Shown here: piece after piece, positions 6,446 through 38,656 of the stretch
How positions within the stretch are numbered: position 1 is the stretch's first letter
How the letters are laid out: each line of letters opens with the position of its first letter
Assembly: GCA_016874775.1 (NCBI GenBank)
Contig: VGTJ01000001.1
Coordinates: 40,887 to 104,886 of the forward strand
Direction of reading: 5' to 3'
From: Deltaproteobacteria bacterium
GTDB taxonomy: Bacteria; Desulfobacterota; Binatia; Bin18
Length of the DNA: 64,000 nucleotides
Notes under the pieces: generated by a model
Seen by the model: the letters and a program-made list of their open reading frames with translations, nothing else
What the model was told of the DNA's origin: nothing
The model's database searches: none
Made by a program: the position numbers and the translations under genes

Positions 6446-8236
6446 ATGACCACCACCGGATTCAAAGCTGAAGGCATTCAATGGAACTTAGGGGAACTTT
6501 ACACCAGCCCAGATGATCCACGTATCGAAGCTGATCTTACCGAAGCACGGCGACAAGCCGAAGCATTCGCGCAAAAGTACCGCGGCAAGCTGGCTGATAA
6601 ACAACTTGATGGCGTAGCGCTGGCGCAAGCATTGCGAGAATATGAAGCGCTGGCTGAAGTCGAACACCGTCCATCGTTCTATGCCAATCTGTTTTTTGCC
6701 GCGGATACGCAAAATCCTAAGGCGCAGCAGCTGGTGCAACGCACTCGCGAAGCCGCCACGGAAACCAGCAACCTGCTCATCTTTTTCTCGCTCGAGGTGA
6801 TCGCTCTCGATGATGAATATGTCGCTCAGCTTGTTGCTGCACCAGCAATGGCGGACTATCTGCACTACGTTGAAGCTTTACGGCGGTTTAAGCCACATAC
6901 GTTGAGTGAGAAAGAAGAGCAGGCGATCAATCAGAAAAATCTCACCGGACGTCACGCCTTTGAACAACTCTATGAAGAACTGACTGGTTCACTGCGGTTC
7001 AAACTGCGGGTCGATGGTGAAGAGAAAGACTTGACCGACGGTGAAGTGATGGCGTTATTACGATCTCCGGACCGAGAGCTGCGCGAACGTGCGTTTACCA
7101 CGTTTCTCGATACCCATGCTCAGCATTCACTGGTCATCACGTCGGTGTTCAACAATATTTTTCTGGACCACAAAGTTGATTGTGAGATGCGGCAGTATGA
7201 TGATGTCGTGCTGCCGACACACCTCTCCAATGAGATTGCGCCGCAGACAGTGGAAGCGATGATGCAAGCGGTCGAACGCCATTATCCACTGGCGCAAGAA
7301 TATTTCCGTATCAAGGCACGCTTGCTTGGGCTCGATACACTCAAGAACACCGATGTGTATGCACCAATTGAGGCGAACGAAGAGAAGCTGACGTTTGCCC
7401 AAGCACAAGAAATGATTCTGACGGCGTTTGGGAAATTCAGCGAGCCGTTTGCAGCCATTGCCAATGACTTTTTCAGTAAACGCTGGATCGATGCCGAAGT
7501 GCGGCCTGGGAAGCGGGGAGGGGCGTTCTGCGCGGCCTTTACCCCTCAACATCATCCGTATGTGTTGTGTAGCTTCAACGGCACTGGTCGTGATGTGTCA
7601 ACCATCGCGCATGAATTAGGTCATGGCATCCATTATTCTCTGGCGCGCAAGCAACGCTTGGTGAATTACGATGCGCCATTGGTACTGGCCGAAACCGCCT
7701 CTGTGTTTGCTGAGATCGTACTTACTAAACACTTGTTAGCTGAAACGTCCAGTAAAGAAGCCAAACGTGCAATCCTGTGTGAGTTACTGGAAGAAATGTA
7801 CGGCACGGTTTTCCGCCAGACCGCGTTGACCCGTTTTGAGATGGCTGGACATCACCAACGTCGCTCAGGGCAACTGACCGCAGACGATATTTGTGAGTTA
7901 TGGTTACAAGAGCAACGCAAAGTATTTGGCGATGGCATTGAACTGATTCCCGCCTATCGTTGGGGATGGACGTATATCTCGCATTTCATTCACAGCCGGT
8001 TCTATTGTTACTCGTACTCGTTTGGTGAGTTGCTGACCTTGGCATTGTTCCAACGTTACCTTGAGGAAGGTGAGTCATTCGTTCCAGGCTACATGCAACT
8101 GCTTGAAAGTGGCGGTTCGCAACGACCTGAAGTCGCACTGGGGAAACTTGGCATCGACATCAACCAGCCCGAGTTCTGGGATCGTGGGTTTAGCGTGGTT
8201 GAGGGGTTTCTAGGAGATTTGCGGGCAACGCTCTGA
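6446..8236 (+). CDS. pepF: M3-family oligoendopeptidase (PepF-like)
   Basis: 596 aa with the HELGHGIHY zinc-binding HExxH motif and M3B architecture. Confidence 0.9.
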   Translation: MTTTGFKAEGIQWNLGELYTSPDDPRIEADLTEARRQAEAFAQKYRGKLADKQLDGVALAQALREYEALAEVEHRPSFYANLFFAADTQNPKAQQLVQRTREAATETSNLLIFFSLEVIALDDEYVAQLVAAPAMADYLHYVEALRRFKPHTLSEKEEQAINQKNLTGRHAFEQLYEELTGSLRFKLRVDGEEKDLTDGEVMALLRSPDRELRERAFTTFLDTHAQHSLVITSVFNNIFLDHKVDCEMRQYDDVVLPTHLSNEIAPQTVEAMMQAVERHYPLAQEYFRIKARLLGLDTLKNTDVYAPIEANEEKLTFAQAQEMILTAFGKFSEPFAAIANDFFSKRWIDAEVRPGKRGGAFCAAFTPQHHPYVLCSFNGTGRDVSTIAHELGHGIHYSLARKQRLVNYDAPLVLAETASVFAEIVLTKHLLAETSSKEAKRAILCELLEEMYGTVFRQTALTRFEMAGHHQRRSGQLTADDICELWLQEQRKVFGDGIELIPAYRWGWTYISHFIHSRFYCYSYSFGELLTLALFQRYLEEGESFVPGYMQLLESGGSQRPEVALGKLGIDINQPEFWDRGFSVVEGFLGDLRATL

Positions 8237-8275
8237 CAACAGTAGTCAGTCTTTAATTCAATTAAAGGAGACCCT

Positions 8276-9088
8276 ATGGCTGAACCAGCCCTGTTGTATG
8301 AAAAACGTGATGGCATCGCCTATCTCACCATCAATCGCCCTGACAAACGTAACTCGTTTAGCCCGGAAGTGCTGTGCCGCATGGCCGACGCCTGGCAAGA
8401 TTATGCGGCGGATGACTCACTGCGTGTGGCCATCATTACCGGCGCGGGTGATCTTGCCTTCAGTGCAGGTGCGGATTTGGGTCGACTGACGCCATTAACC
8501 TCCGGCGCACGTAAGCCGGAAGATGAATGGGATCACCGGTTGTTGGCCCATCCTGAACTCGGTCAGCAGGCAACCTTGCGCGGTATGGCGATGTATAAGC
8601 CGGTCATTGCGGCGATCAATGGTTTTTGTTTGGCCGGTGGCTGTGAGTTGATTCAAGCGACGGATATTCGTATCGCCGCTGAGAAGGCAACCTTTGCCTT
8701 GACCGAAGTGAAGTGGTCACTCATGCCGTTTGCTGGTTCGATGACACGACTGCCACGACAAATTCCCTACTGCAAAGCCATGGAAATCATGCTGGTGGGC
8801 GATACCTTCGATGCGCAAGAAGCGTATCGCATCGGTCTGGTGAATTACGTCCTGCCAGCGAATCAGGTGATGGCAAAAGCCGAAGAATTGGCCCGCAAGA
8901 TTACTGAGAACGGCCCACTCGCAGTGCGCAGAATTAAACAGGTCGTGCTCAATGCCCTCGGTCTACCGCTCGACGAAGGGTTCAAGCTCGAAAATGCCGC
9001 AGCGAAAGAGATCTTAGCGACGGACGACGCAAAAGAAGGTCCTCGGGCATTCATGGAAAAGCGAAAGCCGAAGTACACGGGGAAGTAG
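8276..9088 (+). CDS. enoyl-CoA hydratase/isomerase (crotonase family)
   Basis: 270 aa. ITGAGDLAFSAGADL and a later FCLAGGCEL motif form the crotonase oxyanion-hole pattern. Confidence 0.9.
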   Translation: MAEPALLYEKRDGIAYLTINRPDKRNSFSPEVLCRMADAWQDYAADDSLRVAIITGAGDLAFSAGADLGRLTPLTSGARKPEDEWDHRLLAHPELGQQATLRGMAMYKPVIAAINGFCLAGGCELIQATDIRIAAEKATFALTEVKWSLMPFAGSMTRLPRQIPYCKAMEIMLVGDTFDAQEAYRIGLVNYVLPANQVMAKAEELARKITENGPLAVRRIKQVVLNALGLPLDEGFKLENAAAKEILATDDAKEGPRAFMEKRKPKYTGK

Positions 9089-9159
9089 GACTCCTCAGTC
9101 AGAAAATGTTGAGCAGGCATATAGGAATCCTCAATGAAATGGCAACAAGCAAATACAGA

Positions 9160-9250
9160 CCACCCTTCGACAAGCTCAGGGTGTACGGGAGAGATACGGA
9201 AACGCTTGAACATTATCCGTTCGTGCTGAGCCTGTCGAAGCATGAACCGC
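9160..9250. repeat. palindromic intergenic repeat of the PFVLSLSKHE spurious-ORF type
   Basis: Arms cttcgacaagctcagg (9165-9180) and ctgagcctgtcgaag (9226-9240) are inverted repeats with one mismatch. The element sits between convergent genes and generates the fake ORF 8863..9252. Confidence 0.6.
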
Positions 9251-9713
9251 ATTCATACGGCACCTCACATTTAGGAGCCCTATAGTAACCAGCATCGTAG
9301 TGGAGAGTTAAGAGTTAAGAATGGAGGAAAAGAGGGCTCAGCTCTTTCTCAGTTCTTTTTCTGACTCTTCACGCTTCACTCTTAATTCTTCACTGACTTC
9401 CTATTGTTTACTTGTTGTCTGTAACGCCAACTCATCGAGCAATGTCTTGGCTGCCTGTAAGTCGGCAGTGTCGAACCCTTCAGTAAACCATGCGTACACT
9501 TCAGATAACATCCTGTGTGTTTCAGCCAGAGCTGGCAGTTGCGCAGATGATGGTGCGTGAGTCGTGTTGCGTGATGTCCGCTCATCTACTTGATGTTGTC
9601 GCAACCTCGCGAGACTCATCACGGCGCGCAACTCTAGCGATTTGGCGTGCTGTTGTTGAGCGATAGCGATAGCTTTGAGGAAACACTCCTCCACCTCCCG
9701 CATCACCCCATTG

Positions 9714-30416: not shown

Positions 30417-32936
30417 GTGGACGCAATACGTATTCGCGGTGCCCGCGAACATAATCTGAAAAATATCTCGGTTGAGATCCCGCGTAACAAACTCGTGGTG
30501 ATTACCGGAGTCTCAGGTTCGGGGAAGTCGTCGCTTGCGTTCGATACGCTCTATGCCGAAGGGCGGCGACGCTATGTCGAGTCGCTTTCCGCCTACGCGC
30601 GACAGTTTCTTGACCAACGGGCAAAACCAGATGTCGACGCTATCGAAGGTCTCTCTCCAGCGATTGCCATCGAACAACGCAGTGCGACGACATCGCCGCG
30701 TTCGACTGTTGCGACGGTAACCGAGATCGCCGATTATTTGCGAGTTCTCTATGCGCGCGTTGGTACACCATACTGCTTGCAGTGTGGACGAATTATTGCC
30801 CACCATAGCGTGCCGCAAATTGTCGATCGGATTGCCAGTCTCCCTGAAGGTTCGCGTTTGCATGTACTGGCGCCGATTCGACTGACTGAGGCGAAAAACT
30901 TTGTTGCGACTGTGCGTGAGTTGCGACAGGCGGGGTTTGTCCGTGTCCGTGTGGGGGAGACCCAGTACGAACTGGCAGAAGAAGCATCGTTGCCGCGAAA
31001 ACCACCGAGTGAATTCGAGATTGTCATTGACCGCTTGATCGTGAGAAGCGGTATTGCCCAGCGTTTGGCGGACTCGCTCGAAACCGCGCTACGTCATGGC
31101 AAAGATGTGGTGAAAATTCTCGTTGGCGAGCATGAGGAATTGTTGTTTACTCAGCGCTTGGTCTGCGCAGCGTGTGGGTTTTCCTATCCTGAACTGACCC
31201 CAGCCTTCTTCTCTCCTAATAGCCCGCAGGGCACATGTGCGGAGTGTGATGGACTGGGGACACAGGTGGTGAAACAAAAGCCTAAGAAGGCAAGGGGCGC
31301 TGCTACAAGTGAAGAGGAGGGAGGAGAAATCACTTCATGCGCTGCGTGTCACGGGACACGGCTGCGATCGGAGGTGCAGGGCATTCGCCTCGCTGAGCGA
31401 GACATTACCCAAGTGCTGCAGATGTCAATCGTCGAGGCGCAGCAGTTTTTTGCTGCGTTGTCGCTCAGCGACCAACAGACCCTGATTGCCCAGCCCTTAC
31501 GTCAAGCGATTGAGCTACGCCTGCAATTTCTCCTGAATATTGGTTTGAACTATCTTTCCCTTGATCGCCCCGCAAACACTCTTTCCGGTGGAGAAGTACA
31601 ACGGGTGCGACTCGCAACGCAAATCGGAGGTGGGCTCTCTGGCGTTTTGTATGTGCTCGATGAACCGTCGATTGGGCTCCATCAACGTGACACTGAGCGT
31701 TTGCTGAGTGCGTTACGGGAATTGCGCGATCAAGGGAACTCGCTCGTTGTCGTAGAGCATGATCCTGAAACGATCTTGGCGGCTGATTATCTGCTCGATC
31801 TTGGTCCAGGCGCTGGAGCGCAAGGTGGTGAACTCTTGGCTGTCGGAACACCACAGGAAGTGATAGCCTCGCCTGCGTCAATTACAGGTAGTTATCTTCG
31901 TGGGGAGACGAAAATCCCTCTCCTAAAACAGCGACGAGCCGCGCAACAGTGGCTCACGCTTGCTGATGTGACGCTGCATAACCTCAAGAACGTTACCGCT
32001 CAATTCCCGCTTGGTACGCTTACCTGTGTGACCGGTGTCTCAGGTTCAGGAAAAAGCTCGCTGGTGATGGATGTGCTGTACCCACAGGTGACAATTCTAT
32101 TGAACAAAAGGCAGGAAGGCGAAAAGGGCGTCAAACTGTCAGGCTGGCAGCAACTGAAGAGTGTCATTCGCGTCGATCAAGCTCCGATTAGTCGCACGCC
32201 GAATTCCAATGTTGCAACTTATCTTGGCTTGCTCAATCCAATACGCGACCTCTTTGCGCAATTGCCTGAAGCGCGGGTGCGCGGCTATGGACCAGAACGG
32301 TTCTCCTTCAACGTGAAAGGTGGTCGGTGCGAAGCTTGTGAAGGTGACGGGGTCGTTGCAGTCGAAATGCATCTGCTGCCAGATTTATATGTTGAGTGTG
32401 ATGTCTGTCACAGTACTCGCTACAACCGCGAAACCTTAGAAGTGCGCTTCCGGGGAAAAAATATTGCTGAGGTGCTCAGCCTGTCAGTTGCTGAAGCGCT
32501 GGCTTTTGGTGGTGACGTTCCGCTGCTGCGCCCTAAACTCGAAACTCTGCGTGATGTCGGCTTGGAATATCTCCGCTTAGGACAGCCAGCGCCAACGCTT
32601 TCTGGCGGAGAAGCGCAGCGTCTCAAGCTGGCCAAGGAACTGAGCCGTAAAGCATCTGGTCACACGCTGTATATCCTCGACGAACCAACCACAGGTCTCC
32701 ATTTTGCTGATATTCATCGTTTACTGCATGTTCTGCAAATGTTGGTCGAAGGCGGGCATACGGTCATTGTCATCGAGCATAATCTCGAAGTGATTAAGAC
32801 GGCCGACTACGTCATTGATCTTGGCCCCGAAGGCGGTATAGAAGGCGGAGAGATTGTTGCGGTCGGAACACCGGAAGAGATTGCGCAGGTGGAACGTTCG
32901 CATACGGGACGGTTTTTACGGTCGGTGCTTAGGTAG
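30417..32936 (+). CDS. UvrA-like ABC ATPase, short (class II, ~839 aa) paralog
   Basis: The GTG start gives [53 protein letters not shown]. It has two ABC modules and Zn-finger cysteines. At 839 aa it is shorter than canonical UvrA (about 940 aa), which suggests the UvrB-binding domain is missing. Confidence 0.85.
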
Positions 32937-33002
32937 TGTAGACCATATGATTACCGACAAATTGGATGAGGGATTGGTCATTAAACAGACTTCCAGGATC
33001 CT

Positions 33003-33215
33003 TCACTCAGGTTTCAGGATTCCAGCGTATCCCCCATCGCGTTTTAAGCTTTTCACAAAGACAGTAACTGGTTGTTTTTTTGATTCTTGTTGATTTAATA
33101 ACTGCAAGATCTGCTGTGCCACTCGAGTGGCGAAAACGTTAGGTGCCAATCCTGGAGAAAAACCATAACCCCCTTCTTTGGCACGACATGAAGAGACAAA
33201 GTTCATGATACCCAT
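33003..33215 (-). CDS. in-frame continuation of the same toroid-repeat protein after the internal TGA
   Basis: The region 33003-33242 is in the same frame as 33243..34130 (..WYVP*RLDTLSGYPMGIMNF...). It encodes a further PFTB-type repeat, EGGYGFSPGLAPNVFATRVAQQILQLL. Confidence 0.45.
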   Translation of the reverse strand: MGIMNFVSSCRAKEGGYGFSPGLAPNVFATRVAQQILQLLNQQESKKQPVTVFVKSLKRDGGYAGILKPE

Positions 33216-33242
33216 AGGATAGCCACTAAGCGTGTCAAGCCT

Positions 33243-34130
33243 TCATGGGACATACCATTTGTGTTCGTTTACTTTTCTTGCTGGATCGAGATTTAGAATA
33301 GCATGAGTGTGAATGAGATTTGGACGAGCCTTCGGGAGAGTAGAAAAAGCACATTCTTCTTTTGACCAGCAGGCTAGAACGAAACTCTCTATTTTCTCAA
33401 AATAGGAGTTAAGTTCTTTGCCAATTTCTAATGTAGCGGCAAGGCGCGCCGCAAATATACAAGCTGTCAAACAAATGTCTGGAGAGTTGGGGGCAAGAGC
33501 AAAAGAAGCTAAACTTGATTCACGATTATATGAGGGTTGGTATGCTTTTCGGTAACAAGCAACAATATAATTATAAATAGGTTCGCGGAAGTCCTGAACG
33601 GGTTCGCCAAGTTGCCGTAAGATTAATAGGCAGACATGAAGATCAACCAAATCACCCTCATGCGAGCGGTTCTTGGTAATTGCCGACAAATCGGTACGAA
33701 CCTGATCCGTCATTTCTCTCCTGTCTTTTTCAGAAAACCATCCTTCTTCCTCTACCTCTTTGATTTTTGTGCTGAGTGGTGTGTCACATGGCAAATCGAT
33801 CATCGCCTTGATTACGACAATTTTCGCCCTGAAATCTTGAAGTTTACGCTTTAACCCACTTCTTAGGCCATGCTCATTTACGAAGTTGAAGAGGGAGTCC
33901 TTATGGAAATCAGTTTTCTGGTTGAGGAGTTGTTCTACCTCAACAGCGTGGCTTGTTGCAACGAGAGACGGGTTGTCCCATTGAGAGACTTCTTCAATGA
34001 ACGCCGCCTCAAACTTGAGATCTTCCGTAACGACAGGAGGATTAGACTGCCGTCGGTTACGCAAGAGAGAGAAGAGCCAGTCGAATAAGAAGAAGGACAC
34101 GGATGCAATGAAGAAAATGGCCGAAACCAA
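33243..34130 (-). CDS. membrane-anchored prenyltransferase/squalene-cyclase-type repeat (alpha/alpha toroid) protein, main part
   Basis: An N-terminal TM segment (IFFIASVSFFLFDWLFSLL) is followed by repeats of the PFTB type, for example SLASFALAPNSPDICLTACIFAARLAATL and CAFSTLPKARPNLIHTHAILNL. The gene ends at a TGA at 33243-33245, and the same reading frame continues past that TGA. The locus is AT-rich. Confidence 0.55.
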   Translation of the reverse strand: MVSAIFFIASVSFFLFDWLFSLLRNRRQSNPPVVTEDLKFEAAFIEEVSQWDNPSLVATSHAVEVEQLLNQKTDFHKDSLFNFVNEHGLRSGLKRKLQDFRAKIVVIKAMIDLPCDTPLSTKIKEVEEEGWFSEKDRREMTDQVRTDLSAITKNRSHEGDLVDLHVCLLILRQLGEPVQDFREPIYNYIVACYRKAYQPSYNRESSLASFALAPNSPDICLTACIFAARLAATLEIGKELNSYFEKIESFVLACWSKEECAFSTLPKARPNLIHTHAILNLDPARKVNEHKWYVP

Positions 34131-34175
34131 AAAAAAGAGGAAAAAATAAGTTCATCACAGTAACCTTTTCTCGTT

Positions 34176-34751
34176 CTAGCTAGCGATCCTAAAAAGAAAA
34201 TGAAACGCTAGCGGAAAAACGAGAGAACATGCAGCAATACCAAACAAAAAAACGTGCCGGAAAGAGGTCACTTTGTTTGATGAAGTAAAAACTCGAGTAC
34301 AGAATAGAAAAATAAACACAATAACCACAAGAGACAAGGTAAGCATCGCCTTCTCACAGTCGAGGGAAGCTTGGTTATCGCACTTTCGCCCCATGATGAC
34401 AGCAAGCTTTGTTTGACCGCCAGGCTTTGGAAGGATCCAAGAAGAAAATAACGAAACAAGAGAAACGTTGAGGAAATTCTGAGTGGCGCTTCCGATATCT
34501 TTCCATGATCTCCGTACGCTTTTCTTTGGACTTCTAGAGGCAGGTTTTGCGTACCATGGATCCTGACGATTGGTTCTTAATCTTCTGTGGAAAAAAAGAG
34601 TTATACTTCTTAGTGATGGTTCATTTTGTACTCTCCTGACATCAACGAAAGAGAAATGCGCACTCATCATGACAGTAATGGCTAAGGGAAGAAAGACTGT
34701 ATATATACAAAAATTCATTGTCATTACGTCTTTGAGGATGTCGAACACCAT
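34176..34751 (-). CDS. 4-TM integral membrane protein, unknown function (co-directional with the toroid-repeat gene in the AT-rich island)
   Basis: 191 aa with four hydrophobic helices and a basic loop (RRLRTNRQDPWYAKPASRSPKKSVRRSWKD). Confidence 0.5.
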   Translation of the reverse strand: MVFDILKDVMTMNFCIYTVFLPLAITVMMSAHFSFVDVRRVQNEPSLRSITLFFHRRLRTNRQDPWYAKPASRSPKKSVRRSWKDIGSATQNFLNVSLVSLFSSWILPKPGGQTKLAVIMGRKCDNQASLDCEKAMLTLSLVVIVFIFLFCTRVFTSSNKVTSFRHVFLFGIAACSLVFPLAFHFLFRIAS

Positions 34752-34943
34752 ACTTGTTGTGACCTTTTGACGGAAATCTAGCGGTTTATTTCAGATAGAG
34801 CGAAGGGTTGTCAAGCTATTCGCTTCAGAAAGAGCGTGAGTTCAAGCATAGAAACAAAGCAGACTCTTCAAACAAAAGCCCCAGGTTCCCTTGACAGCTC
34901 TCAGCCTGCATCTTATCGTAGACTTGTAAGGTCCATTTTAAGA

Positions 34944-35012
34944 CACGTAAAACGTACCCAGTAAAACGTAATAAGGAAGAGTGGGGTGGTTACGCATCAC
35001 GTTTTACGTTTT
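34944..35012. promoter_or_regulatory. cluster of gtaaaacgta motifs (two direct, one inverted) in the iscA leader
   Basis: The copies are acacgtaaaacgtaccc, agtaaaacgtaat and cacgttttacgtttt. A related gcgtaaaacgtaatacgtaacc occurs after gcvPA at 27645-27668. Confidence 0.35.
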
Positions 35013-35028: not shown

Positions 35029-35361
35029 ATGGCGCAAGCGACAATTGATATCAGTGAGAATGCGGCAAAGAAGATTCAGTCACTCTTGGCTCAACAGGAA
35101 AAAGACGCACAGGGGCTGAGGGTCAAGGTTGTTGGCGGGGGGTGTTCAGGGCTCTCGTACAAGATGGACCTTGATGTCCAACGTGATGGTGACCGAGTCT
35201 TTGAGCGCGATAACGTTAAAGTGATTGTTGATCGCAAAAGTTTTATTTATCTCCGCGGCACCGAGCTAGACTACGCTGACGGGCTGATGGACTCTGGGTT
35301 CAAACTACAAAACCCTAACGTCAAACGCTCGTGTGGCTGTGGTAGCTCGTTCTCGGTGTAA
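35029..35361 (+). CDS. iscA: A-type iron-sulfur carrier (IscA/ErpA/HesB family)
   Basis: VGGGCSGLSYKMDLD and the C-terminal CGCGSSFSV give the three conserved Cys. Confidence 0.9.
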   Translation: MAQATIDISENAAKKIQSLLAQQEKDAQGLRVKVVGGGCSGLSYKMDLDVQRDGDRVFERDNVKVIVDRKSFIYLRGTELDYADGLMDSGFKLQNPNVKRSCGCGSSFSV

Positions 35362-35378
35362 GCCGCGCTGTATGATGC

Positions 35379-36038
35379 ATGACTACTGTTGCTGTTCTGC
35401 GGTGTTGGCGGTGTGCCCATGAGCATTCCGCCACACTCTTCTGCCCGCGCTGCTCTGCCGTTCAACCCCTCCCACCTCAGACCGATTATTTCACTGTTTT
35501 TGGCTTACCCCTTCGACCAGCAATCGATGAAGCTGGGCTGACTCAGCGGTATTACGACCTCAGCCGCCGTCTTCATCCTGACCTGTACCAGGCTGGCACT
35601 GCAGAAGAAAAAGACGCGAGTCTGAAAAATACGGTTCTTTTGAATCGCGCGTATCGGACCTTGCGGGATCTGATTACGCGTGGTCAATACTGGCTTGAAA
35701 TGCAAGGCGAAGCCCTCGGGAAGGAGAACAACCGTGTCCCGCCGACGCTTGCTGCCTTGGTGTTCGAGGTACAAGAGAAATTGGCCGAGATCCGTGATGC
35801 GCGAGCTGCAGGTGACGGTGAGGTCGATATCGCTACTCTGACGGAAATTCGCGCTGACCTGGATGGACAAATGCAGCGACTCCGTACCGCCTTAGTTGGG
35901 AATCTTGAGCAGTGGCCTGAGCCCTCGCGCTCGCAAGAATTACTTGTGCAACTGAAACGGTTATTATCTGAAATTGCTTATTTGCGTACCTTGTTACGTG
36001 ATGTGGAAAAAGAGAGTGAGGTTTCGTGGAACGCATAG
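35379..36038 (+). CDS. hscB: Fe-S co-chaperone HscB (J-domain) with an N-terminal Cys4 zinc finger
   Basis: CWRC...CPRC is followed by the J-domain [35 protein letters not shown]. Confidence 0.85.
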
Positions 36039-37837
36039 TTGGTATCGACCTTGGAACAACCAACAGTCTGATTGCTTTTGTAGATGGCGAGACACCACGT
36101 GTGATCGCTGATCCTACTAGCGGTGATCCATTGCTTCCCTCGGTCGTTGCATTTCTTACCAACGGCCAGATTGAGGTTGGACAGGAGGCCAAGGCGCTTC
36201 TTGCCGACCAGCCACTGACAACGATTCAATCGGTGAAACGCTTCATGGGATTAGGCATGGAGCATGTTAATGTGGAAGACCGTCGACGCTATCGTTTTGC
36301 TGATGAAGGTGGTGTTGTCCGCTTCGCGTTGCCAGGCCATCCCTATACTGCACCGGAAGTGTCTGCCTTTATCTTACGAGCCTTGCGAGATCGCGCAGCA
36401 GTGTACTTAAAAGAACCCATCAATAAAGTAGTGATTACTGTTCCTGCGTATTTTAACGACTCGCAACGACAAGCCACGAAGGATGCCGGTCGATTAGCAG
36501 GGCTAGAAGTGGTGCGCTTAGTCAATGAGCCCACTGCCGCATCGCTTGCCTACGGCCTTGATAAGAAGGAAGAGGGGCTTATTGCTGTCTATGATTTGGG
36601 TGGCGGCACCTTCGACATTTCGATCTTGCGATTGCACACCGGAATCTTTGAAGTCCTGTCGACCAATGGTGATACGCGACTGGGTGGGGATGATATCGAC
36701 CAGCGGATCGCAGAACGGTTTCTTCTGGTAGGCCTTCCTGAAGCAGTACAGCATGATCCGCACGTTGCCAGTAGTGCCCGGCGTGTGGCCGAACAAGCAA
36801 AGCGAGCCCTCTCTGACAACGATGACACGCAACTGCGCTTAGAAGTGCCGGAGAAGAAGGTGTCGATTACGCGAACCCTCGCGCGCAAAGAGTTAGAAGC
36901 TGCGGTTGATGATATCGTTGCACGGACCTTAGCTCCGTGCCGACAAGCATTAAAAGACGCCGGCCTTGAACCACGCGAGATCGATGAAGTGGTGATGGTG
37001 GGTGGCTCGACGCGGATGCCGTTGGTGCGCCGGCGTGTTGGTGAGTTCTTTGGTCGCAAGCCACTGACTGACCTCAACCCTGACGAAGTTGTTGCGTTGG
37101 GGGCAGCAGTACAAGCCGATACACTTGCCGGACGTCGTAAAGACATGTTGCTGCTTGATGTGGTGCCGCTCTCGCTGGGTATTGAGACGATGGGCGGAGT
37201 AATGAGTCGCCTGATCGAACGCAATACGACGATTCCCACGAGTGTGAAAGAAACCTATACGACAGCAGTGGATGACCAGACCGCGGTCGATATACACGTT
37301 CTGCAAGGCGAGCGTGAATTGGTGCAGGATTGCCGCAGCCTCGCGCGCTTCAAAGTGCCGATCGATCCCCAACCAGCGGGAATGCCGCGTATCGAAGTGA
37401 CGTTCATGATCGATGCGAATGGCATCCTCAATGTTGCCGCTTTAGATATGCGCACAGGGCGTGAGCGTTCAGTCGAGGTCAAACCTTCATATGGGTTGAC
37501 TGATGAAGAAATTGAGCGGTTGCTCGAAGAGTCGATCGATTTTGCCGAAGACGATGTCACTCGCAGATTGATCATCGAAGCGCGCACGGAAGCAGATACC
37601 TTACTGCATGTGACAGAAAAGCAATTGCAGCAACACGCTGCGTTTCTTCAGCTTGGCGAAGAAGCGAAGATTCGCGCTGTCGTGGCGGCTCTCAAAGAAG
37701 CGAAAGAGGGCGAGGACTATAATCGCACTCGTGACCTGATTGAAGAATTAGGGACGACCTCAGCACCTTTTGCGCAGCGGATTATGGATACCTCGATTGG
37801 TGAAGCATTGGGAGGAAGAGAGTTGGGAAGGGTGTAG
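36026..37837 (+). CDS. hscA: Fe-S chaperone HscA (Hsp70 family)
   Basis: [18 protein letters not shown] and [12 protein letters not shown] are Hsp70 signatures. The start overlaps the hscB stop. Confidence 0.9.
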
Positions 37838-37914
37838 CTGCTGGGAGTGCGGGCGTCCCGCCCGCAAAAAAGGCGACCGAGACGGTCGCGCTCCCGGGAA
37901 CAAGTGAGGAATAT

Positions 37915-38127
37915 ATGAAACTCTACTGGGACACTCCCGAAGATATTGCTGAACAACTTTTCGAAGCTCACGCTGAGATTGACCCACTCACCGTGCGTTT
38001 TACTGACTTACATCGTTGGATAATAGAGCTGGAAGGGTTCGCAGATGACCCAAAAGCATCCAGTGAAGGAAAACTAGAAAAAATTCAAATGACCTGGCTA
38101 GAACTCTACAAAGAACAAAACGAATGA
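37915..38127 (+). CDS. iscX: Fe-S assembly protein IscX (YfhJ)
   Basis: The 70-aa MKLYWDTPEDIAEQLFEAHAEIDPLTVRFTDLHRWIIELEGFADDP matches E. coli IscX closely. Confidence 0.8.
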   Translation: MKLYWDTPEDIAEQLFEAHAEIDPLTVRFTDLHRWIIELEGFADDPKASSEGKLEKIQMTWLELYKEQNE

Positions 38128-38236
38128 TATACACTATGTAGTGTTGTCTAGAGTCCAGCCCGTAAGGGCTGTTGGTTGTGGTGGATGTGGCGATCAAGGA
38201 AGTGATCCTTGGTCAGAAAGGGTAGGAGGCTTCAGT

Positions 38237-38656
38237 ATGAAGGACCAACGTGTCGCGGATGGGGGAGCAGGCGTTTTCCAGCCGGATTTTCTTCTTCCTC
38301 TCCAATTCTTCACCGGGACCCGTGGAAAAGGATGTGGCGAAGGCGAGCGTCGTTTGATGCTGGCCATCTTGGAAGATGCGGTTGATTGTTTCCAGAAATA
38401 TCTGGGAACGCGGGAAAGTCGCGGTCGACTGCTTTGCTCTGATGCTGAGGAGTGGTTTATGTCAGATGACCGCAGTTGGCTGTTCTCATTCGTCAATGTC
38501 TGCGAAGTGCTCGGATTACAGCCCGACTTTATTCGTGAAGGGTTACAGGACTGGAAGACGAGACAGCTGGAAAAAGCATTGTCACCAAAGCCACCGGTAG
38601 CAGATGGACCAACACAAGCAAGAGGTCGAAAACGGGGGACGTTGGTGGCGGCGTAA
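38237..38656 (+). CDS. hypothetical protein (139 aa), no family recognised
   Basis: A strong Shine-Dalgarno GGTAGGAGG precedes the start. The protein has a helical, acidic core (RRLMLAILEDAVDCFQKYLG...AEEWFMSDDRSWLFSFVNVCEVLGLQPDF) and a basic tail. The overlapping S-rich minus ORF 38194..38910 is judged a shadow ORF. Confidence 0.45.
   Translation: MKDQRVADGGAGVFQPDFLLPLQFFTGTRGKGCGEGERRLMLAILEDAVDCFQKYLGTRESRGRLLCSDAEEWFMSDDRSWLFSFVNVCEVLGLQPDFIREGLQDWKTRQLEKALSPKPPVADGPTQARGRKRGTLVAA

Follow-up and report, generated by a model that had tools for sequence, protein, structure and literature searches.

A low-GC cassette encoding a small membrane protein and an interrupted prenyltransferase-beta-like toroid protein beside a truncated isc operon in a Deltaproteobacteria bacterium

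Results

An AT-rich segment with two minus-strand genes lies between uvrA and iscA

We analyzed a window of 64,000 nucleotides (nt) from a Deltaproteobacteria bacterium (assembly GCA_016874775.1, contig VGTJ01000001.1, positions 40,887 to 104,886); all positions below are counted from the first letter of this window. Between the uvrA stop codon and a conserved promoter element of iscA, the window contains an AT-rich inserted segment (32937 to 34880; hereafter the island), where relatives possess about 180 bp. Two genes are encoded on the minus strand of the island, as had been proposed in an original prediction made from the letters of this DNA. The upstream gene (34176 to 34751) is an open reading frame (ORF) for a 191-amino-acid (aa) polytopic membrane protein with four predicted helices, also as originally proposed. 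The downstream gene (33003 to 34130) encodes a membrane-anchored protein predicted to form an alpha/alpha toroid like that of protein prenyltransferase beta subunits; counted from a TTG at 34130, its frame spans 375 codons, with an in-frame TGA at codon 296.

The GC content of positions 33000 to 34900 was 42.7%, compared with 53.3% for the remainder of the window, and no other 1.9-kb stretch of the window was lower. When the window was divided into 1-kb bins, the two bins of the island had GC contents of 43.2% and 42.2%, and the other 62 bins ranged from 48.7% to 58.9%. Thus, the dip was located where it had been predicted by eye, whereas the predicted background of about 57% was approximately 4 points too high. 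Codon usage was scored with a leave-one-out index resembling the codon adaptation index, calculated from 42 genes of the window (mean 0.790, standard deviation 0.026). The index was 0.657 (z = -5.1) for the 191-aa ORF and 0.726 (z = -2.5) for the first 295 codons of the toroid gene. The island was the sole dip of this kind in the 64 kb, and its codons were atypical.

The borders of the island were defined by comparison with two relatives (L007 and L008), which were obtained from a scan for HscB among species-representative genomes and whose HscB is 80% and 75% identical to that of the window. The DNA of the window was 75-78% identical to that of the relatives through uvrA. BLASTN homology ended at 32924-32927 and restarted at 34881-34882 with a 58-nt element, after which the alignment ran on through iscA, hscB, hscA and iscX. 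Between these anchor points, the relatives possess spacers of 182 nt and 184 nt that could not be aligned, compared with about 1.95 kb in the window. We found no convincing terminal repeats at the island (only short repeats at the level expected by chance), no tRNA gene in the 64 kb, no recombinase among the island ORFs and no match to an Rfam family in the island region.

The island is foreign by composition and missing from the same locus in two relatives, and its gene pair recurs in an unrelated genome, as described below; these sequences are therefore best read as horizontally acquired. This agrees with the recent acquisition that had been predicted from base composition.

The downstream gene encodes a predicted membrane-anchored toroid

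When the toroid protein was modeled using AlphaFold2 with a 31-sequence alignment (predicted local distance difference test score [pLDDT] 87.7, predicted template modeling score 0.86), a helix at residues 2-27 was followed by a helical barrel with six hairpins, the alpha/alpha toroid fold. The N-terminal transmembrane anchor (residues 1-27; 34050 to 34130, minus strand) is followed by the residues RNRRQ, so that by the positive-inside rule the toroid would face the cytoplasm. Note that the predicted barrel requires the 70 residues encoded 3' of the stop codon. Both the anchor and the repeat peptides quoted in the original prediction were present in the protein.

Foldseek and a profile search of PDB sequences agreed on the toroid, and the family profile matched PDB sequences with an E value of 2.5e-13 via three short repeat matches. 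The match to Pfam family PF00432 was marginal (27.2 bits against a gathering cut-off of 26.5) and covered residues 307-368 only. In structure, the toroid is nearest to the beta subunits of protein prenyltransferases, not to squalene cyclases. Accordingly, of the predicted assignment to a prenyltransferase-beta or squalene-cyclase type, the toroid fold and the prenyltransferase side were retained and the squalene-cyclase side was dropped.

The family is sparse. A word-indexed search of 5.8 billion proteins with the toroid protein returned the protein itself and a single homologue (P0002), and a word-indexed profile search with the alignment A4 likewise returned only two proteins. An exhaustive search of 1.84 billion cluster representatives using a hidden Markov model detected 18 proteins at E < 1e-30 and 41 at E < 1e-10. 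In the 31-sequence alignment, the family motifs were W..P.L..T..A.E, CLTAC.FA.R, GGF...P...PDL.HT, C...GGYAL.P...P.AY.TRLA.QI and GGY.G.

Three residues of the toroid protein, D218 (33477-33479), C220 (33471-33473) and H274 (33309-33311), are candidate metal ligands collinear with the zinc triad of the Rab geranylgeranyltransferase (RabGGTase) beta subunit; their codons lie within 33309 to 33479 on the minus strand. In an hhalign comparison, residues 243-286 aligned with residues 259-302 of RabGGTB (probability 95%), which placed H274 on the zinc ligand H290. By collinearity, P217-D218-I-C220 matches P237-D238-V-C240 of RabGGTase beta. Three segments of the RabGGTB sequence used here are consistent with PDB chain 6o60_B, and the numbering of the triad D238/C240/H290 was checked. 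Within the family, C220 was conserved in 28 of 31 members and H274 in 26, and D or E occupied position 218 in 10; further, C224, C315 and R336 were strongly conserved. The toroid thus probably keeps a Cys/His metal site.

The toroid gene is interrupted by a premature TGA codon

The TGA codon (33243 to 33245, minus strand) divides the toroid gene into an ORF of 295 aa that ends at the stop (33243-34130) and an ORF of 70 aa in the same frame (33003-33215, both on the minus strand). The frame is open on both sides of the stop. The 522-aa homologue P0002 (30% identical) aligned straight through this position, and the corresponding residue is Trp in the homologue encoded in L010, an unrelated genome described below. 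Further, a 365-aa protein from a sixth assembly (P0151), which belongs to the same 90%-identity cluster, has Trp at this position (...KWYVPWRLDTL...) and is otherwise identical. The TGA was found in five other assemblies that were 99.99-100% identical to the window across 1.6-14.9 kb. As judged from these alignments, the toroid gene of the window is a nonsense allele produced by a single change of TGG to TGA, which is recent and polymorphic because P0151 retains Trp and is otherwise identical.

The predicted protein of roughly 375 aa therefore exists as a frame but only by reading through one in-frame stop codon. In the model, termination there costs the barrel its final one and a half helical hairpins. 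No RNA resembling a selenocysteine insertion sequence (SECIS) was detected after the TGA, either as an Rfam match or as a significant local fold (z = -1.6), and TGA is the terminator of 10 of 34 long ORFs in the window. Selenocysteine or another recoding of the TGA was rejected, given the lack of a SECIS, the use of TGA as a normal stop in the window and the Trp in homologues and in the intact allele.

A second lesion may be present at the 5' end. Compared with the L010 copy, a 2-nt gap in a Gly codon places a possible older start (GTG at 34158 or ATG at 34155; region 34128 to 34158, minus strand) out of frame. The sequence here is T-rich and low in complexity, so that the lesion is no more than suggestive. 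The TTG at 34130 or a GTG at 34100 would still be usable as a start and leave the membrane helix intact.

In the public record of this metagenome-assembled genome, the broken toroid gene is entered as two hypothetical proteins, MBM4254325.1 (285 aa) and MBM4254324.1 (70 aa), and the 191-aa ORF is not listed under an NCBI accession. The two entries should be annotated jointly as one disrupted gene.

A small membrane protein gene accompanies the toroid gene

In the 191-aa protein, hydropathy placed the four helices at about residues 12-34, 88-108, 134-156 and 164-188, with an Arg/Lys-rich loop between the first and second helices. Single-sequence AlphaFold2 modeling gave a helical structure of low confidence (pLDDT 54, too low for a fold search). 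The GC content at the three codon positions was flat (0.42/0.41/0.40), with no codon-position signal. No Pfam or NCBIfam family matched the protein, and in a word-indexed search of 5.8 billion sequences it matched only itself.

A homologue was nevertheless detected in L010 by tblastn (positions 105-542; 33% identity over 153 aa, E 2.6e-15; pairwise blastp, 34%, E 2.5e-21). In L010, a homologue of the toroid gene (601-1717, 39-44% identical) lies directly 3' of this gene. L010 belongs to a different genome with unrelated flanks, and the pair occupies a patch of 46.5% GC in a contig of 56.5% GC. Thus, the two genes travel together, and the existence of this homologue upstream of the toroid homologue ruled out a spurious frame as the origin of the 191-aa ORF. 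The toroid gene of L010 is also damaged, by an in-frame TAG after the anchor and by a 1-nt frameshift; other genes of L010 are fragmented as well, and the frameshift is possibly an assembly error. A 342-aa ORF (L010 1945-2973) lies in the same low-GC patch before an AbiEii fragment; searches of Pfam, PADLOC and PHROGs gave no match. The window lacks this ORF, which is possibly a third cargo gene.

The membrane-anchored family members examined were those of the window, L010, L009, L011, L013, L015, L016 and L020/L021. A small ORF with 2-4 hydrophobic helices was located immediately upstream of the toroid gene, often overlapping its start, in seven of eight membrane-anchored members; in the eighth (L019), an upstream ORF fragment resembled a tyrosine recombinase by eye only. 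Three soluble members (L001, L014 and L017) possess instead an N-terminal extension of about 160 aa, and each is preceded by a gene for a soluble protein of 290-540 aa (L001 2-1621, L014 351-1715 and L017 442-1326). The upstream proteins of L001 and L014 are homologous (E 3e-34, 28% identity over 463 aa), and the soluble subfamily may represent a second type of the same module.

The GC content of the module was below that of its flanks in 8 of 10 related loci measured. At some related loci, the neighbors encode a DDE transposase, a mad8/HerA-like ATPase (E 6e-16), a PDC-S11-like protein (E 2.5e-6) or AbiEii, none of which occurs in the window. No gene resembling an alpha subunit was found beside any family member examined; the rest of the genome was not searched. 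We concluded that the two-gene module is real, rare and uncharacterized. The original prediction had stated that it could not be assigned to a known pathway, and neither NCBIfam, PADLOC nor PHROGs provided a match.

We found no evidence for an origin from a phage or plasmid: there was no tblastn match in phage and plasmid collections, no PHROG, no fold match in BFVD and no locus in IMG/VR. Two metagenome scans found nothing, and a search of the literature for prenyltransferase-like proteins in phage defense or in bacteria found nothing relevant.

The adjoining isc cluster lacks iscRSU independently of the island

The island abuts iscA (PF01521, E 8e-20), which is followed by hscB, hscA and iscX (PF04384, E 2e-27), as had been noted originally. 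The first gene, iscA (35029 to 35361, plus strand; 110 aa), is outside the island. Its start is more likely the ATG at 35029 than a GTG at 34981, because the same 110-aa gene is called in the other assemblies and in both relatives. The 58-nt element at the right edge of the insertion (34882 to 34939, plus strand) is 86% identical to those of L007 and L008. A promoter scan identified TTGACA, a gap of 17 nt and TATCGT at 34891-34919 as the top promoter-like site of the region. The element probably serves as promoter for the iscA-hscBA-iscX operon and may contain an operator as well.

The original prediction had considered either that the island displaced iscR-iscS-iscU or that the organism uses a truncated isc set, and the latter was found. 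In both L007 and L008, the order is uvrA, a spacer of about 180 bp, the conserved promoter and iscA-hscB-hscA-iscX, with neither the island nor iscRSU at this junction. A tblastn search with the Escherichia coli proteins IscS, IscU, IscR and Fdx gave no match in the window or in the loci of the two relatives, except for a weak match to the pyridoxal-phosphate fold of gcvP. Since the island-free relatives also lack iscRSU between uvrA and iscA, the truncated cluster is, on present comparisons, ancestral at this locus and older than the insertion, and nothing recognizable was displaced. A link between the island and isc function is not supported.

Several features of the surroundings were also recorded. 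The isc cluster (35029-38127) consists of iscA-hscB-hscA-iscX, without iscR, iscS, iscU or fdx, here and in both relatives. The iscA leader (34945-35009) contains a perfect 11-nt inverted repeat, ACGTAAAACGT / ACGTTTTACGT, 43 nt apart, and a second, overlapping copy of GTAAAACGT. It is not conserved in L007 or L008, and the repeat may act as a binding site for a regulator or form an RNA hairpin. HscB starts with an N-terminal CxxC...CxxC motif (weak PF18256 match, E 0.15). Directly 3' of iscX, an ORF at 38141-38656 (plus strand) occupies the same place in the other assemblies and in L007 (12829-13248); these ORFs encode 139-171 aa without a Pfam family and may belong to the isc operon. In L007, uvrA (6751-9301) is read as two overlapping ORFs of 610 aa and 264 aa, most likely through a frameshift error of that assembly.

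Discussion

Taken as a whole, the data are probably best explained by the acquisition of a two-gene cassette that specifies an accessory, possibly conflict-related membrane module, the toroid of which carries Cys and His residues resembling zinc ligands. The cassette was inserted into the small gap that separates uvrA from the promoter of an iscA-hscB-hscA-iscX operon in which iscRSU was already missing. The toroid would be held on the cytoplasmic side of the membrane beside its small partner and would act without the alpha subunit that the eukaryotic enzymes require. From the Cys and His (plus Asp in this copy) that are collinear with the prenyltransferase zinc ligands, we infer that the toroid most likely serves as a binding site for a metal and for a ligand that is hydrophobic, resembles an isoprenoid or carries a thiol. 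A dispensable accessory role for the module is suggested by its patchy distribution and foreign composition, by the loss-of-function alleles and by neighbors of mobile or defense-like type; these observations also make a role in conflict between genomes plausible, with the small membrane protein as a co-factor or effector. The window's own copy has most likely lost its activity, or retains a weak one where tRNA-Trp reads through the UGA.

Several observations weigh against this explanation. Within the family, the putative metal triad lacks a conserved Asp, and the ligand assignment is a local alignment of one repeat in an internally repetitive protein, made without superposition. The small membrane partners show no detectable homology across the family except for two pairs. 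In the soluble subfamily, the match of the N-terminal region of the partner to the CAP12/Pycsar-type TIR domain is below threshold (PF10137, E 0.023) and was not confirmed by a profile search of the PDB. The defense-like neighbors are hints, being few, mostly domain-level matches and counted without a background rate. Neither protein has a match in PADLOC-DB 2.0 at E <= 0.1, in PHROGs or in NCBIfam, and plasmid, phage and viral-contig collections contain no relatives. Further, the flanks of the island in the window are housekeeping genes without an integrase, tRNA or terminal repeat. Finally, the functional role proposed for both proteins, and for all family members, is read from sequences and models.

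Other explanations were weighed against the same evidence. That the interrupted toroid gene is still functional, either by UGA read-through, in which near-cognate tRNA-Trp would restore the original residue, or by assembly of the 295-aa and 70-aa polypeptides into one barrel, is unlikely. In bacteria, UGA is the stop codon that is read through most readily. Save for the stop, the protein matches that of the intact allele in full and keeps every family-conserved residue, an ATG follows 27 nt after the TGA, and the closest homologue, that of L010, is likewise broken in this part of the gene, at a point about 26 codons further 5'. However, there is no clear ribosome-binding site 5' of the downstream ATG and no SECIS or other recoding signal, and read-through normally yields a small fraction of full-length protein. 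Further, the break in L010 is a different lesion, a 1-nt frameshift in a record with other fragmented genes, and because the lesions differ, the two breaks look like independent damage or assembly error. We consider it quite unlikely that the toroid is a terpenoid cyclase of the squalene-hopene type or another isoprenoid-lipid enzyme for the cell envelope, with the small membrane protein as its lipid-handling partner and a metabolic role in place of one in conflict. A DxDD motif was present in 2 of 31 family members, and none of the motifs DxDD, DDxxD and QW was found in the toroid protein of the window. A class II terpene cyclase was rejected for this protein, which lacks DxDD and QW, has its best structural match elsewhere and does not show the two-barrel architecture.

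It is scarcely credible that the island ORFs are chance open frames in AT-rich junk DNA. Such frames would account for the flat codon-position GC of the 191-aa ORF, its codon index, which is the worst in the window, and its lack of a database homologue in the word-indexed search; however, in an unrelated genome each ORF has a homologue at the protein level and the order of the two is preserved. For the toroid, there is also an alignment of 31 members, a fold predicted with confidence and a normal GC content at the codon positions (0.52/0.36/0.43). Replacement of iscR-iscS-iscU by the island is just as improbable. In the canonical operon of the E. coli type, iscRSU precede iscA, and the island abuts iscA. 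In the two relatives, however, the same promoter and iscA follow uvrA and a spacer with neither the island nor iscRSU, and tblastn detected no trace of IscS, IscU, IscR or Fdx in the island or in the rest of the window.

A more specific version of the acquired-cassette explanation goes further, and we hold it to be doubtful. It would define a bacterial prenyltransferase-beta-like family that lacks an alpha subunit, is tethered to the inner face of the membrane and is paired with small polytopic membrane proteins or, in the soluble subfamily, with TIR-like proteins. The family would serve either as a mobile conflict or defense module or in S-prenylation of a protein or lipid thiol, and the TGA/TGG polymorphism would reflect a fitness cost.

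The fold and the repeat type are already known. In the libraries and papers searched, we found no description of a membrane-anchored form that lacks an alpha subunit, of a small membrane protein as its constant partner or of an accessory-island lifestyle. To our knowledge, protein prenyltransferases are otherwise known as eukaryotic alpha-beta heterodimers. If the family has enzymatic activity, it would be a membrane-tethered bacterial relative of these enzymes that needs no alpha subunit and has a conserved small membrane partner, and the question would arise as to which thiol or lipid it modifies. If the family serves in conflict, the defense repertoire would gain a new fold. For this genome, the island represents a recent accessory insertion, the main gene of which has already been knocked out in most sampled populations. 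The missing iscRSU is a lineage trait of the isc locus that was not caused by the island.

Comparison with known systems places the cassette as follows. The nearest are the beta subunits of the protein prenyltransferases (farnesyltransferase, geranylgeranyltransferase I and Rab geranylgeranyltransferase; PF00432), from which the family differs in being bacterial, with only 9-14% identity, and in having an N-terminal membrane anchor or a helical extension of about 160 aa. In contrast to the heterodimeric enzymes, the cassette has no gene for an alpha subunit, and its partner is a small membrane protein or a soluble protein of 290-540 aa. Further, the Asp ligand is not conserved in the family, one extra repeat follows the repeat that bears the His, and the genes lie in AT-rich accessory DNA. 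The class II terpene cyclases (squalene-hopene cyclase, drimenyl diphosphate synthase and MstE) share the fold class, and membrane association is common among them. With the canonical isc operon (iscRSUA-hscBA-fdx-iscX), the DNA beside the island shares iscA, hscB, hscA and iscX in that order; however, iscR, iscS, iscU and fdx were not found here or in the relatives, and the island, located 5' of the conserved promoter that belongs to the operon, bears no relation to these genes. Finally, the cassette resembles small genomic islets and the cargo of defense islands in its low GC content, its unusual codon usage, its restriction to certain strains or lineages, its polymorphism for loss of function and its repeated occurrence next to mobile or defense-like genes in genomes that are unrelated, and it differs from them in that this site has no integrase, tRNA target or repeats and its proteins match no catalogued defense family.

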